Origin: an uncultured Candidatus Rokubacteria bacterium
Lineage (GTDB): Bacteria > Methylomirabilota > Methylomirabilia > Rokubacteriales > CSP1-6
Direction of reading: 5' to 3'
Assembly (NCBI GenBank): GCA_963762145.1
Contig: CAVXJS010000021.1
Coordinates: 864,001-928,000, forward strand
Length of the DNA stretch: 64,000 nt
A program made the position numbers and the translations under genes. Under the pieces are notes generated by a model. The model did not search any database and was not told the DNA's origin. It saw nothing but the letters and a program-made list of their open reading frames with translations. Positions within the stretch are counted from its first letter, which is position 1, and each line of letters starts with the position of its first letter. Below, piece by piece: positions 5,531 through 9,888 of the stretch.

Positions 5531-6661
5531 CTAAGTCCGCTCCAGGATGTGCAAACCTCGGCCCCGGTCGATCAGGTAGAAGAGACCACGACCGTCCACC
5601 TCGACGTCGTTGCTGGAGACGCGGGCGTGACCGGCGGGGGGCTCCGGCAGGAAGTGGGCGACCTCGCGCGGGGCGTGAGGATTGGCGACGTCCACGACGC
5701 GGAGCCCGTAGGCGAACCAGGCCACCGGGATCTCGGTCCCGGTCACCCGCTCGCAGGGCTGATGGCAGCCGGTGAACTCGGGCTGAGGGTCGCCGTTCAC
5801 TCCCGGCACCTGGAAGGTCGAGATCGGCACCGGGTGGCGCTCGTCGGTGATGTCCACCAGCCAGAGGAACGACGGCGGCCCCGGGGCGGTCTTGGCCACG
5901 TCCTCGTCGGCGGCCAGCATGATCCGGCGACCGTGGAGCGGGAACGGCAGCGGCAGCGCGGTATGGGTCGGCGTGATGTAAGGCGGGCTCCAGTCGAGGC
6001 CGGAGACGAAACGGGGCTTGCTCATGTCCTCGATGTCGAGGATCACGAAGCCGCCGTGCCAGTAGCTCACGTAGAGCCGGTTGCCCGCGCGGATCGGGTG
6101 GTGGCAGCGATGATGGCGCCCCGACCACGCCGGCTTCTCGCCACCCGCGGTCCACTGCCCCGGCATCCACCAGCGCCCCACTTCCTTCGGGTTCGCGGGG
6201 TCCTGCAGATCGAGGATCATCACGATGTTGCCGACGTAGCCGTCCATCTCGGGCGAGATGTAAGCGTAGCGCCCGTCGAAGGTGAAGCGGTGCACGCCCG
6301 CGCCGCCGCACTTCCAGAACGTGATCTCGCGCGGCTTGCTCGGGGTGGACACGTCGTAGATCACGAGGCCGCCGCCGACGCCGGCCGGGGGCTGGTGGGC
6401 GGGCTGGGCCTCGCGGTTCACCAGCATGAGCCCGTTGGCCACGCGCACCTTGTGCGAGTGGGTCTGGGGCGGCACCTCGACGGTGGCGAGGATGCGGGGC
6501 CGGGCCGGGTCGCTCACGTCCACGATGCTGGTGCCGTGGGGCGCCTTCATGTGGGCGATGTAGGCGGTGGTCCCGTCGACGGAGACCTGGCCCCCGCCCG
6601 GGCAGTCGAGCCAGGACACCTGCCTGATGCCCTGCACGCTCGGCGCGATCGCGGTCGTCAT
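5531..6661 (-). CDS. LVIVD repeat beta-propeller protein
   Basis: Repeated IVDVSDP, IYDVSTP, ILDLQDP and VVDVANP motifs. Confidence 0.88.
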   Translation of the reverse strand: MTTAIAPSVQGIRQVSWLDCPGGGQVSVDGTTAYIAHMKAPHGTSIVDVSDPARPRILATVEVPPQTHSHKVRVANGLMLVNREAQPAHQPPAGVGGGLVIYDVSTPSKPREITFWKCGGAGVHRFTFDGRYAYISPEMDGYVGNIVMILDLQDPANPKEVGRWWMPGQWTAGGEKPAWSGRHHRCHHPIRAGNRLYVSYWHGGFVILDIEDMSKPRFVSGLDWSPPYITPTHTALPLPFPLHGRRIMLAADEDVAKTAPGPPSFLWLVDITDERHPVPISTFQVPGVNGDPQPEFTGCHQPCERVTGTEIPVAWFAYGLRVVDVANPHAPREVAHFLPEPPAGHARVSSNDVEVDGRGLFYLIDRGRGLHILERT

Positions 6662-6769: not shown

Positions 6770-8344
6770 ATGGCCACCTCCGTCGACCGGTCCCTGCGCC
6801 CCGAGATCAGCACTGCCTATGCGCGCCTCGAGGAGAAGATCCTGGAGCGGGACCAGAAGGGGGCCAGCGACATCTTCTATGACCTGGTGCGGGCCCAGGT
6901 CCCCCTCGCGGAGCTGGCCGGCCAGATCGTCCGCATCCACGCGCCCTACACGCACGTGCCGTACCATCAGCGCCTCGACGACGGCGTGCCGCGGTTCGTC
7001 AACAACGACCACTGCCTGCTCAGCTCCCGCGCCAGCCTCGACCTGATGCCGCTGATGCCGCCCGAGCTGGCCTACCTGCCCTACGCCCAGACCATCTGGT
7101 ACATGCCGACGGGCCTGGATCCCTGGAACCAGCTCCTCGGCAAGATGCCCGGGCACTACGTGCGCCTCTACGAGATCAAGTTCGAGGGCAAGCCGCCCCT
7201 GCCCGAGGTGCACTGGCCGGACCAGGCCCCGCTGCCGATCGAGGGGACGTGGCCCGAGCGGCTCAACACGTGGCTCACGCTCGTGCAGCGCGGCGAGGTC
7301 ATCAACTCCTATCGCGTCTTCCTCGGGCTCTGGGACGAGGCGGTGGGCGACGAGGCGAAGCGCACCACGCTGCTCGCCCAGCTCGTCTTCGCCGGACTCA
7401 TCGACGTGCAGGACCGCGTGCTGCACAATCGCTCCTACACCACCGGCCACAAGTCCTACCGTGCCCGCGCCACCGTGGAGGTCGCGCGCGCGGTGGGCTG
7501 GAAGCACGCGCACTCCATCCTGTACGCGGGCGTGCCCGACATCGCGGTGGGGCCGCGCTGGTACTCGACCTACGAGATGGGCTGCCTCGTGATCCAGAAC
7601 CTGCTCGACGGCCGGGACCGCGAGCTGCTCGAGAACGACCTGCCGCTGACGCCGGTCGAGTCGCTCGCGCTCCAGCAGGCGATCCTGAGCGGCCAGGAGC
7701 CGGCCTTCATCGACCTGATCGTGGCGCTGCTCAAGTCCGGCCGCGGCCACCGCCAGATCATCGACACGATCCAGCTCGCCTCGGCCCAGCTCATCATCGA
7801 GACCGGCGACGTCAACGCCTACTCGATGCCGCAGCACAGCTACGAGTACTGCAACACGGTGCGCTGGTTCTTCGACACCTTCCAGCACCCGCACCGCCTC
7901 AAGCTGCTCTTCGTGGCCGCCGCCTTCGTCACCCGCGCCGCGCACCACCAGAGGCACACCCCGGACAACAACCCGGTGAAGATCGCGCCCCCCAAGGGCT
8001 CCGACGCGCTCACCTCGTCGGAGGTGCTCAAGCGCCTGGACGGCGCGCTCGACGGCCTGCGCGCCTTCGAGGCGATGGACTGGGTCGCCGCCTACCTGCG
8101 AGACGGCGCGGACCGCGGCCCGCTGCTGCAGACGCTCGCGGTGGGTGCGGCGAAGGCGGGCAACGATCCGCACAACCAGGAGCTGGGGATCTGCCTGCTC
8201 GACGACTACCGCCACTCGACCGCGGAGGAGCGCGACCGTCTGCTCTACGCCTCGGCCAAGCACACCGCGGGGCATCGCAAGTACGGCAGCCACCTGGACG
8301 CGTGGCGGCGGTACGCGGACGCCTTCGGCCTCGCCCGCTCCTGA
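6770..8344 (+). CDS. Hypothetical helical protein with four His-bearing pseudo-repeats
   Basis: 524 aa, AAGGAG SD, strong coding codon bias; segments NDHC, TGHK, PQHS and DPHN. Confidence 0.8.
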   Translation: MATSVDRSLRPEISTAYARLEEKILERDQKGASDIFYDLVRAQVPLAELAGQIVRIHAPYTHVPYHQRLDDGVPRFVNNDHCLLSSRASLDLMPLMPPELAYLPYAQTIWYMPTGLDPWNQLLGKMPGHYVRLYEIKFEGKPPLPEVHWPDQAPLPIEGTWPERLNTWLTLVQRGEVINSYRVFLGLWDEAVGDEAKRTTLLAQLVFAGLIDVQDRVLHNRSYTTGHKSYRARATVEVARAVGWKHAHSILYAGVPDIAVGPRWYSTYEMGCLVIQNLLDGRDRELLENDLPLTPVESLALQQAILSGQEPAFIDLIVALLKSGRGHRQIIDTIQLASAQLIIETGDVNAYSMPQHSYEYCNTVRWFFDTFQHPHRLKLLFVAAAFVTRAAHHQRHTPDNNPVKIAPPKGSDALTSSEVLKRLDGALDGLRAFEAMDWVAAYLRDGADRGPLLQTLAVGAAKAGNDPHNQELGICLLDDYRHSTAEERDRLLYASAKHTAGHRKYGSHLDAWRRYADAFGLARS

Positions 8345-8496
8345 GGTTCCAACTCGACTCCCGAACCATAGAAGACTTACCTGCCCAGGTCTGGAACTTC
8401 TTACTTGGCTTGATCGGGTTTCGCCGATCGGGGGCCGCTAAGTATTCACTGCGGTACAAAGACCGCTTTGGCTCGCCTCTTGCCCCGTGAGGGCTC

Positions 8497-8751
8497 ATGG
8501 GGTCTCAGAAGCCCCGCGCGGCCGGCGATGATTCAGCAGGCAACGACGCCACCGGGGTGACGGCATTGCTCGCGGAGCTCAGTCCGAGTACCGACTTGCC
8601 GTCGCTGGTCGAACGAGTGTCTCGGAGCGATCTCTCCCGGATCGTGATCCCGGCTGCAACCCTTGCCGCCTGGAAACGACGGGACCCCTCAGGCTTGGCC
8701 AAGGTCCTTACCTGGCTCGAAGCCAAGGGGGTCACGATCGCGGCTACTTGA
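8497..8751 (+). CDS. Small hypothetical protein
   Basis: 84-aa ATG ORF with GAGG SD and an amphipathic C-terminal half. Confidence 0.45.
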   Translation: MGSQKPRAAGDDSAGNDATGVTALLAELSPSTDLPSLVERVSRSDLSRIVIPAATLAAWKRRDPSGLAKVLTWLEAKGVTIAAT

Positions 8752-8783
8752 CGGTATCGGCGAACAGGCGCTAGATAAGTCCT

Positions 8784-9527
8784 GTGACTGCCCGCGTCTA
8801 CTACCGCCAGGGCTGAAGCTCCTGCGCCAAGACGAAAGAGTTGCTTTCGTCATGGGGAGTGGCCTTCGAGGGCTTCGACGTCGAGGCCCAGCCGGAGCGC
8901 CGGGCTGACCTCGAAGCGTTTGGCGTGATGCGCGTGCCCGCCACCATCGTGGGGGAGCGCATCGTGCACGGCTGGAACCCGCAGGCGCTGGCCGAGCTGG
9001 TCGGCGTGCGCTATCGCGCGCCGAAGAAGCTGACCCCGGCCCAGCTCGCCGAGCGGATGGACCTCGTCCTGGCCGCGACCCAGCGGGCGATCCGGCAGGT
9101 GCCGCGCGAGCACCTCGGCATGAAGTACCCGGGGCGCGATCGGACGGTGCACCAGCTCGGCTTTCACGTGTTCCGGGTGGCCGCCTCGTACGCGGACACC
9201 CGGGAGCAGGGCAATCTCGACGGCGCCTGGTTCGAGGAGAACGCGCCGCCCGAGATGGCCGACGGCGACGCGGTGGCGCGCTACGGGGAGACGGTCCGCG
9301 CGCGCCTACGGGCGTTCTTCGCGCGGCCCGGGTGGTGCGATGGCGAGGTGAGCACCTACTACGGCCCGCAGTCGGCGCCCGAGTTCATGGAGCGCACGAC
9401 GTGGCACTCGGCCCAGCACCTGCGACAGATTTACTGGTTCCTGGACGAGCTCCACGTGAACAAGGACGCGCCGCTCACCGACGCGGACCTCGAGGGGCTG
9501 CCGTTCCCGCGCGAGGTTTGGTCTTAG
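8784..9527 (+). CDS. Glutaredoxin-like (UxxC) / DinB-like fusion, putative selenoprotein
   Basis: GTG at 8784 is in frame with ORF 8841..9527 through TGA 8814-8816: MTARVYYRQG-U-SSCAKTKELL. Trx-fold VPA cis-Pro motif; DinB-like HQLGFH and WHSAQHLRQI. Confidence 0.8.
8817..8859 (+). promoter_or_regulatory. Putative bacterial SECIS hairpin
   Basis: Perfect 8-bp stem GACGAAAG (8831-8838) / CTTTCGTC (8844-8851), loop AGTTG starting 22 nt after the TGA, lower stem CTCC/GGAG. Confidence 0.65.
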
Positions 9528-9888
9528 CCCCCTCACCCTGCCCTCTCCCCCTCCGGGGGAGAGGGTTCTTGTTCGCGATGAAGGTGTGGGCCTCGCACAC
9601 CACCTGCTCGACCCGCTTCCAGCTCGGGCGCCCGTCGAGGCGCACCCCCACCCAGCCGCGCACCCCGACGTAGGGCGGCACGAAGAACCGCTCCGAATCC
9701 TCTCGGACGAGCAGCGCCTGGGCGCCGAGCGGCATCGCGAGCCAGACGCCCACGTGCGGGGCGCCGTGGTGATGGTTGTCGAACGTGGCGAACATCCGGC
9801 CACTCACCCAGAACGTGGGCTCACCGTGGGAGATCTTCTCCGCGGTCCCCGGCAGCGCGAGGCAGATGCGCCGCAGACGCGCCAGCAG
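9475..9888 (-). CDS. MmcQ/YjbR family protein
   Basis: LRRICLALP, SHGEPTFWV, RFFVPPYVGVRGWVGVRLD at the 3' end of ORF 9475..10812. No canonical start (CTG at 9888); the C-terminus reads through a palindrome. Confidence 0.75.
   Translation of the reverse strand: MLARLRRICLALPGTAEKISHGEPTFWVSGRMFATFDNHHHGAPHVGVWLAMPLGAQALLVREDSERFFVPPYVGVRGWVGVRLDGRPSWKRVEQVVCEAHTFIANKNPLPRRGRGQGEGAKTKPRAGTAAPRGPRR
9528..9565 (+). repeat. REP-like palindrome, copy 2
   Basis: CCCTCACCCTGCCCTCTCCCCCTCCGGGGGAGAGGG at a convergent gene junction. Confidence 0.85.

Follow-up and report, generated by a model that had tools for sequence, protein, structure and literature searches.

A 64,000-nucleotide stretch of the genome of an uncultured Candidatus Rokubacteria bacterium (phylum Methylomirabilota; contig CAVXJS010000021.1 of assembly GCA_963762145.1, positions 864,001 to 928,000 of the forward strand; hereafter the window) very probably carries a true selenoprotein gene, read through at an in-frame UGA. 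The predicted product joins a glutaredoxin-like domain, with selenocysteine (Sec) as the first residue of its active-site motif, to a helical bundle of the DinB superfamily (Table 1). The list of open reading frames (ORFs; translation table 11) contains only 8841-9527 for this gene, a frame of 228 residues with a TTG start. As an earlier note on this DNA had stated, that frame extends upstream to GTG 8784 across one TGA (8814-8816), the sole break before the frame ends at TAG 9525-9527. The same note placed this TGA at the first Cys of a thioredoxin-fold CxxC, and we indeed find a U-S-S-C motif of the glutaredoxin/NrdH type at that point. With the TGA read as U, the translation is VTARVYYRQG-U-SSC-AKTKELLSSWGVAFEGFDVEAQ..., 247 residues in all, 236 of which follow the Sec. 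We infer Sec insertion at this UGA chiefly from comparative data, namely the retention of the TGA among relatives, the presence of Cys at that column in more distant homologues, compensatory substitutions within the stem of a hairpin just downstream, and the weaker folding of the corresponding region in genes of the Cys form.

Conservation of the TGA and of the codons around it

A six-frame search covered a sample of 201 genomes of the phylum and returned matches for 175 of them. Counting the listed rows, at least 116 of the 201 have a match with exactly one TGA (two of these genomes, G101 and G058, are flagged as unpublished). Within the sample, 124 of the 125 genomes from the window's own family gave a match of any kind, as did 16 of 16 genomes of a second family. 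At the DNA level, 49 of 50 genome loci carry TGA at the column, including the deeply diverged copies L070 (35% identity) and L071 (29% identity), and a single locus (L072) carries TGC. Among the best 80 metagenome loci, all of which belong to the Sec clade, 74 carry TGA and none carries Cys, while the N-terminus was not located in the remaining 6; in a species collection, TGA is present in all 13 loci, of 16, that bear the N-terminus. Positions 8804-8837 are also covered by contigs from four further studies, two of DNA and two of RNA libraries, with no listed difference at 8814-8816, where the earlier note had considered that reads might instead show TGC or TGT. One RNA-library contig spans 8787 to 8966; all of these matches being contigs, those from RNA libraries are a weak hint of transcription and not a measure of expression level.

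The seven codons preceding the TGA encode R-V/L-Y/F-Y/H-R-Q/P-G in all loci read, and these codons differ in 17-70% of pairs sharing the same residue, compared to a gene mean of 40%. Lack of conservation upstream of the TGA was among the findings that the earlier note had named as evidence against its proposal; the upstream region is instead conserved as protein with varying codons. These comparisons indicate that the region upstream of the UGA is translated, since it varies synonymously in the manner of coding sequence, and that selection maintains the UGA as a sense codon. In the databases the gene appears in shortened form. The 120 closest proteins listed from a collection of 5.8 billion are 215-228 residues long and cover 87-92% of the query, and because all 120 start just past the TGA column, we conclude that annotation truncates this selenoprotein.

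In distant homologues the column is occupied by Cys. Among 150 listed representatives of clusters formed at 50% identity, 50 begin at query residue 6 or earlier, of which 44 were aligned and 6 partial sequences were left out. Positions C11 and C14 are invariant in the 44 aligned full-length representatives, within the motif PGCSSC, and 4 of the 6 partial sequences likewise carry C..C. Together with the 49 TGA loci these 44 representatives supply both kinds of homologue, Cys and TGA, that the earlier note had proposed to look for at this column. The Cys forms come mostly from Pseudomonadota, in Atlas clusters named 'DinB superfamily/Glutaredoxin domain-containing protein', and on megaplasmids of Variovorax, Caballeronia, Roseomonas and Rhizobium they are annotated as 'glutaredoxin domain-containing protein' or 'DinB family protein'. 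Like the Sec form they have the two-domain architecture (257-265 residues, PGCSSC motif, 28-40% identity; for example WP_162571355.1 from Variovorax and WP_207446294.1 from Roseomonas), and their conserved His, Arg and Gln residues are those of the Sec form. They differ in having Cys in place of Sec, in the weaker folding of their mRNA and in lying within varied catabolic gene clusters, and they are uncharacterised.

One genome (G179) carries a Sec copy (L055, contig C34) together with a Cys paralogue (L072, contig C139; codon TGC), the latter apparently a reversion from Sec to Cys after duplication. We built a tree by a quick maximum-likelihood search with midpoint rooting, leaving open all forks with less than 80% support and excluding truncated representatives that begin MKEFLS. 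The 47 Sec forms and L072 grouped together among the Cys forms (SH-like approximate likelihood ratio test, SH-aLRT, 96), with L072 lying inside a Sec subclade (support 100). The tree requires two changes, namely one gain of Sec and one reversion. These results are consistent with a Sec form that derived from the Cys (CSSC) forms widespread in Pseudomonadota and was then fixed across Rokubacteria-type lineages of Methylomirabilota.

The excluded representatives (P0145, P0187, P0208, P0221, P0224, P0239, P0246 and P0266) are 30-37% identical to the query and start with MKEFLS, four residues past the CxxC column; they are probably further truncated Sec forms from other lineages. A separate match, P0149, is a predicted protein of 4561 residues made of tandem repeats of about 50 residues, which matches the redoxin region in 28 stretches and is probably a translated repeat array rather than a relative.

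The start region was also compared with that of related loci. L043 starts with ATG (MTDARVYYRQG-U) where the window has GTG, and L028, L029 and L045 have an in-frame ATG farther upstream of the TGA, behind GAGGAG. The 439 bp at 8345-8783, between the selenoprotein gene and an upstream gene for a 524-residue protein, are unique to this genome; close relatives lack this stretch, and in them the two genes abut (L025, L043). An ORF of 84 residues inside it (8497-8751) gave no Pfam match and no tblastn match in 45 related loci. The stretch replaces the usual start region and may account for a GTG start without a Shine-Dalgarno site.

Selenocysteine machinery and the hairpin downstream of the UGA

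All four genes of Sec synthesis and insertion that the earlier note had proposed to check (selA, selB, selC and selD) are present in the window's genome (G000). The selA (577 bits), selB (363 bits) and tRNA-Sec (69 bits, Rfam) genes are clustered on contig 9, where ARAGORN calls a tRNA-SeC with anticodon tca, and there are two selD genes, L010 on contig 11 and L011 on contig 14. The alpha subunit of formate dehydrogenase (FdhA) in the same genome also has one TGA. Of the two selD genes, one has no TGA; the frame of the other is interrupted by a TGA (context CAG-U-ASK), behind which stands an 8-bp hairpin with the loop GAUC. Across the phylum sample, selA (counted at E<=1e-60) was found in 173 of 201 genomes.

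Downstream of the TGA lies a perfect 8-bp stem, GACGAAAG (8831-8838) / AGTTG (8839-8843) / CTTTCGTC (8844-8851), with its G-containing loop 22 nt past the TGA, exactly as the earlier note had described it. Beyond a single A-A mismatch the stem is extended by CCA/TGG (8827-8829 / 8853-8855), so that the hairpin begins 11 nt past the UGA. The model of the bacterial selenocysteine insertion sequence (SECIS), as given in the passages on bacterial elements in PMC13188914, specifies an apical loop of 3-9 nt, an upper stem of 4-16 bp, a G within the first two loop positions, 16-37 nt between UGA and loop, and a minimum free energy (MFE) of -7.5 kcal/mol or less. In the window, the loop AGUUG has 5 nt with G then U at positions 2-3, sits on an upper stem of 8 bp and starts 22 nt past the UGA, and a 36-nt piece has an MFE of -16.6 kcal/mol. 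Similar hairpins follow the TGA of two undisputed selenoprotein genes in the same genome, those for SelD (8 bp, loop GAUC, spacing 21) and FdhA (6 bp, loop AGCUCUG, spacing 17). The SECIS-like character claimed in the earlier note is thus borne out by the published constraints and by the compensatory changes that follow.

Over 44 distinct sequences of the Sec form, 87.7% of the cells of the 12-pair stem form pairs, compared to 38-52.5% when the partners are slid. Seventeen cells are changed on both sides, compared to 6.7 in shuffles, and none of 500 shuffles was as high, counts that overstate the signal because the sequences are related. Pair 28-40 goes from AU to CG in 4 of these sequences and pair 29-39 from AU to GC in 10; the double changes go along with coupled substitutions in the protein, in which Arg replaces Lys and Ala replaces Ser. 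Synonymous variation points the same way. The minimum over 9-codon windows (0.18, compared to a gene mean of 0.40) falls at the hairpin, and at the codons labelled Ala13, Lys14, Thr15, Glu17 and Ser20 the synonymous difference is 0-0.06, making them nearly or fully fixed.

Folding energies were compared between the two forms, the control being made up of four plasmid genes of the Cys form plus L072. The equivalent 36 nt of 49 Sec forms fold at a mean of -17.2 kcal/mol (range -23.5 to -10.5), whereas in the four proteobacterial Cys-form genes the same window folds at -2.3 to -10.2 kcal/mol despite encoding a similar peptide (TKEFL). A SECIS-like stem of at least 6 bp is absent from three of these four genes; in the fourth it measures 7 bp. 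Taken together, these comparisons indicate that the hairpin is under constraint at the RNA level. The gene thereby agrees with the comparative criteria for bacterial selenoprotein genes described in PMC13188914, namely a Sec/Cys pair, TGA homologues from further Sec users that are conserved to either side of the UGA, a SECIS, and the insertion machinery in its own genome.

A scan of 8650-9000 against Rfam found no relevant family, its sole row being a chance viral stem-loop (E 4.3). A second perfect hairpin, GGGUCG-AGUU-CGACCC, lies about 43-60 nt past the TGA, codes for G-V-E-F-D-P and is conserved in the loci L073-L089. Its distance from the UGA exceeds the 16-37 nt of the model and the Cys paralogue has it as well, for which reasons it was set aside as a SECIS candidate.

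Domain architecture, proposed mechanism and relation to known proteins

The earlier note had described the product as a glutaredoxin-DinB fusion, and both halves could be assigned, the first by sequence and the second by fold. The Pfam model Glutaredoxin (PF00462) matched residues 5-60, a span that includes the UGA position, with an E of 2e-10 and 41.2 bits compared to a cut-off of 22.9. A profile search of the PDB returned glutaredoxin 7c10 (5.6e-17), NrdH 1h75 and, at 6.7e-4, DR0053 (6iz2); the same search with the DinB half alone gave 0 matches. No NCBIfam model reached its cut-off. The best NCBIfam score was that of the YruB family (TIGR02196, 50.9 compared to 88.55 bits), and NrdH (TIGR02194) scored 35.9 compared to 85.75. 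Also far below cut-off were a selenoprotein-specific ArsC-related model and Uxx-star (NF041212, 30.3 compared to 66 bits), the latter a family we take to be defined by a Sec three residues from the C-terminus.

An AlphaFold2 model built with 44 homologues had a predicted local distance difference test score (pLDDT) of 94.6 and a predicted TM-score (pTM) of 0.89, with strand beta1 at residues 3-7 and a helix at residues 12-23. In this model, a product starting at 8841 or 8859 would be without strand 1 and without the active site of the thioredoxin fold. Foldseek matched the N-domain to NrdH 1h75 (TMt 0.84) and to the thioredoxin-like protein BC3987 (3zit, TMt 0.87), and the C-domain to YjoA (3dka, TMt 0.77), DR0053 (6iz2, 0.79) and YfiT (1rxq, 0.68). 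The DinB assignment is clear from the predicted fold and lies just under the cut-off by sequence; in clusters of the Cys form in the Atlas, 28-66% of members carry the DinB_2 model (PF12867). Besides the His residues of Table 1, R204, R214, Q215 and P52 are invariant in the 44 representatives. We take P52, as the conserved Pro before strand 3, to fill the cis-proline role.

From this architecture the following mechanism can be proposed. Translation would begin at GTG 8784, and the hairpin at 8827-8855 would recruit SelB-GTP-Sec-tRNA(Sec) at the UGA, where Sec would be inserted. The ribosome would then continue to the stop at 9527, yielding one selenoprotein of 247 residues in which an N-terminal NrdH/glutaredoxin-like fold with the active site U11-S-S-C14 is fused to a DinB four-helix bundle with His128, His208 and His212. 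The His triad would hold a divalent metal, which would bind or activate an electrophilic or oxidised small-molecule substrate; the U11 selenolate would attack this substrate, Cys14 would resolve the adduct into a selenenylsulfide, and a thioredoxin-reductase-type or thiol system would then reduce the selenenylsulfide. In this scheme the fused redoxin domain would act as a built-in thiol cofactor that could replace a free thiol or recycle the enzyme. By analogy with related folds, the protein is probably a thiol-dependent transferase or reductase. A mechanism of the specific class set out here, with a His-triad metal and selenolate attack, we rate somewhat short of an even chance. Of the Sec-dependent thiol redox/transferase fusion truncated by annotation that the earlier note had put forward, the Sec gene and its truncation are supported by the comparisons above, while the transferase function comes from analogy.

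Three conserved His, two of them in HxxxH spacing, are shared with the DinB/YfiT thiol S-transferases, and in YfiT-type structures three His bind metal. By fold the C-domain matches YfiT, YjoA and DR0053 (TMt 0.68-0.79); the S-transferases of this superfamily include YfiT of B. subtilis, BstA of S. aureus, mycothiol S-transferase and the mycothiol-dependent maleylpyruvate isomerase. As described in PMC5790435, proteins of the DinB/YfiT type act as thiol transferases, with bacillithiol, mycothiol or glutathione as the thiol that attacks electrophiles, and one member is a mycothiol-dependent isomerase. These S-transferases depend on a free thiol of low molecular weight and, unlike the protein encoded in the window, lack a fused redoxin. 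In PMC13188914 and in our literature search we found no DinB/YfiT thiol S-transferase described as a selenoprotein.

Selenoproteins with a glutaredoxin (Grx) domain are known. Table 1 of a 2026 review (PMC13188914) lists 119 selenoprotein families and subfamilies, including Grx (PF00462), of which a clostridial member is given as experimentally verified. Like that family, the protein described here has a thioredoxin fold in which Sec, the first residue of UxxC, stands where helix 1 begins, and its candidate SECIS lies in the coding region just downstream. In contrast to it, the redoxin makes up only the first ~78 of 247 residues and is fused to DinB, its NCBIfam scores place it nearer to the NrdH/YruB type than to the classical glutaredoxins, and the host belongs to Methylomirabilota rather than to the clostridia. 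A bacterial selenoprotein of the thioredoxin-fold UxxC type with an in-frame SECIS is a well-known kind, and its mechanism of Sec insertion is standard; new selenoprotein families appear regularly, and no new principle is involved.

Canonical glutathione S-transferases (GST) have an analogous plan, with a thioredoxin-fold N-domain and an all-helical C-domain, and gave the top whole-chain Foldseek matches (4hz2, E 1.5e-4). They differ in that the TM is 0.31-0.36 with a root-mean-square deviation of 11-16 Å and the helical domain here is a DinB bundle rather than a GST C-domain. Identity with canonical GST was rejected, and the resemblance is one of architectural analogy rather than whole-protein homology.

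What is noteworthy is the prevalence of the gene in a major soil phylum and its systematic mis-annotation. In place of a redox enzyme, catalogues hold a headless DinB protein across an abundant soil phylum, and a family model would correct hundreds of records. The fusion would equip the thiol-transferase fold of DinB with a selenol/thiol centre of its own and so bring that fold into selenium biochemistry. The natural pair of Sec and Cys forms, including a Cys paralogue beside a Sec copy, lets one ask what such an enzyme gains from selenium. The finding also adds to the picture of Methylomirabilota as an unusually selenoprotein-rich phylum that is drawn in PMC13188914.

Weighing of the evidence and neighbouring features

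Besides the relatedness that inflates the shuffle counts, a number of observations weigh against the reading of this gene as a functional selenoprotein of the kind proposed, several of which concern the hairpin. Its fold z-score is only -2.2, and under loose SECIS rules a stem of 8 bp or more follows 48 of the 1472 TGA trinucleotides in the window (3.3%); with a minimum stem of 4 bp, 1054 of the 1472 fit. The hairpin alone is weak evidence, and because it is not rare by these measures, the weight of the case is carried by the comparative data. These have weak points of their own. When partners are slid by +1, 19 cells are changed on both sides, and the covariation score is 0.118 compared to 0.125. 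Pair 29-39 is broken in 13 of 44 sequences and pair 23-45 in 26 of 44, and in the subclade at 44-52% identity (L073-L089) the apical stem is often mismatched, the lower stem CCAAGACG/CGUCUUGG being perfect there. Constraint on protein and on RNA is confounded, as the stem encodes the conserved T-K/R-E-L-L-S/A-S. Finally, the four Cys-form controls come from other phyla and have another base composition, and the Cys paralogue L072 retains much of the hairpin (-13.7 kcal/mol).

The remaining points concern the gene, its distribution and its function. Upstream of GTG 8784 we found no AGGAGG-like or otherwise clear Shine-Dalgarno site in the window sequence, as the earlier note had already remarked. 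Two representatives depart from the pattern at the active site, namely P0236, a broken product of 121 residues that diverges past residue 75 and has Arg at the column, and P0157, in which both Cys are lost. The DinB_2 model matches residues 93-216, nearly its whole length, at an E of 4e-4 and 21.3 bits, below its cut-off of 24.8. No selA was found at E<=1e-60 in 15 of the 116 TGA-form genomes. Five of these 15, with an estimated completeness of 93-100%, were checked. In two of them (G022 and G058) selB begins 32-252 nt from the start of a contig, so that the loss of selA there probably reflects a break in the assembly. Neither selA nor selB was detected in the remaining three (G010, G017 and G073), which gave no match at E<=1e-40, a level that two non-SelB loci of G000, probably EF-Tu (frames of ~405 residues matching the first ~270 model positions), passed at ~1e-55; the absence in these three is likely due to missing assembly. 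As to function, the gene context is conserved within the genus only, and on the four plasmids with Cys forms it varies, the neighbours ranging from TauD/SDR/CoA-transferase clusters to an operon of the isochorismatase-AtzG-amidase type.

Against this background, we considered four other explanations. Were the UGA an ordinary stop, the product would have 222-228 residues from TTG 8841 or GTG 8859, and the 10 upstream codons would be a leader or a tiny ORF. The ORF list and the 120 closest listed database entries all match this truncated form, and GTG 8784 is without a Shine-Dalgarno site. However, the N-terminus of such a product would fall within helix 1, and the amino acids encoded ahead of the TGA are maintained, with synonymous changes, in copies as distant as 29% identity. 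In addition, relatives have an in-frame ATG behind GAGGAG upstream of the TGA, and distant homologues have Cys at the column; we give an ordinary stop a very slim chance. A slim chance likewise attaches to the UGA being decoded other than as Sec, or not only as Sec, whether by near-cognate Trp, Cys or Arg or by Cys carried on tRNA-Sec when selenium is scarce. The identity of the inserted residue comes from comparison, other bacteria make do with a Cys form, which G179 also has as a paralogue, and selenium in soil is often limiting, which counts in favour of such decoding. On the other side stand the complete Sec machinery, a SECIS-fitting, covarying hairpin under synonymous constraint of which plain read-through has no need, and the retention of TGA over TGC/TGT across the clade, with one reversion among 48 sequences. 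That the gene is a pseudogene, or its TGA an error of sequencing or assembly in this metagenome-assembled genome (MAG), would fit the estimated 88% completeness and 5.4% contamination of the MAG and the visibly broken state of the related representative P0236. Nevertheless, 49 of 50 genome loci and 74 of 80 metagenome loci share this TGA, as do contigs of independent runs, and the frame is intact over all 247 codons save the TGA; the independent assemblies practically refute an error, and its probability is negligible.

The fourth explanation accepts a true selenoprotein and holds that it is already catalogued, either as 'Grx' or 'Grx-like' or among the 63 selenoprotein genes predicted in a Methylomirabilota MAG. 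It draws on the listing of Grx (PF00462, UxxC) as a verified family in PMC13188914 and on that MAG, which is attributed to Deng et al. 2026 in a passage of the same review. Set against it, Table 1 of the review, which sorts families by domain architecture, does not list DinB, all NCBIfam models score below their cut-offs, and all 120 closest listed proteins are truncated. The word 'DinB' is absent from the text of the review and from the main text of the deep-Sep paper, and a full-text search of the literature for selenoprotein families or selenocysteine together with DinB or DinB-like returned nothing within the full texts covered. Papers in which selenoprotein, DinB and glutaredoxin all occur treat other subjects, such as E. 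coli and mercury. The family may already stand in the supplementary list of a survey, perhaps as 'Grx'. We consider prior cataloguing unlikely, though well within reach; the statement in the earlier note that this is not a described selenoprotein family agrees with Table 1 of PMC13188914, with NCBIfam and with the literature search. The fullest form of our proposal is that the gene represents an unrecognised selenoprotein family, the first with a DinB-superfamily domain, fixed in Rokubacteria-type Methylomirabilota, in which a fused NrdH-like U-x-x-C redoxin replaces a free thiol. As a whole we hold this proposal tentatively, and with more doubt than confidence. If true, the protein would be a self-contained 'selenol S-transferase/reductase' with a GST-like plan made from unrelated parts, and would rank among the most widespread unannotated selenoproteins of soil bacteria.

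Table 1. Coordinates of the predicted selenoprotein gene and its features within the window.
Feature	Position	Strand	Remarks
Predicted complete selenoprotein coding sequence	8784..9527	+	GTG start, single Sec-UGA, TAG stop; 247 codons plus stop
GTG start codon	8784..8786	+	Sole ATG/GTG/TTG in frame between TAG 8772-8774 and the TGA
UGA predicted to be read as selenocysteine, residue 11	8814..8816	+	First position of the U-S-S-C redox motif; aligns with invariant Cys11 of Cys forms
TGC, Cys14	8823..8825	+	Second (resolving) residue of UxxC; invariant column C14
Candidate SECIS hairpin	8827..8855	+	Lower stem CCA/UGG, one A-A mismatch, upper 8-bp stem, loop AGUUG 8839-8843
Glutaredoxin/NrdH-like thioredoxin-fold domain, ~residues 1-78	8784..9017	+	Pfam PF00462, PDB profile, Foldseek
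DinB-fold helical bundle, ~residues 85-222	9036..9449	+	Pfam DinB_2 (below cut-off), Foldseek, conserved His
His128	9165-9167	+	In at least 90% of sequences
His208	9405-9407	+	Invariant
His212	9417-9419	+	Invariant
Terminator-like GC-rich palindrome, then TTCTTGTT	9540..9566	+	12-pair stem just past the stop codon; copy of a dispersed repeat

The genes flanking the selenoprotein gene encode a 524-residue protein without a family, a YjbR protein, a VOC dioxygenase and a MetE-like protein, and they recur in 12-18 of 45 related loci, all of which are close relatives. Conserved neighbours were dropped as a clue to function, since they recur only in close relatives and vary among Cys forms. The gene for the 524-residue protein (6770-8344, + strand) lies directly upstream; its product has no Pfam family, and 12 of 45 related loci keep it with 82-95% conservation. 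Farther upstream, at 5531-6661 on the - strand, a gene encodes a beta-propeller of LVIVD repeats, which matches the SBP56 family of selenium-binding proteins weakly and below threshold (E 0.0067). Just past the stop codon, positions 9528-9580 gave 207 blastn rows within the genome, the segment itself included, and represent a dispersed repeat. Many contig ends from soil runs pile up on this repeat.

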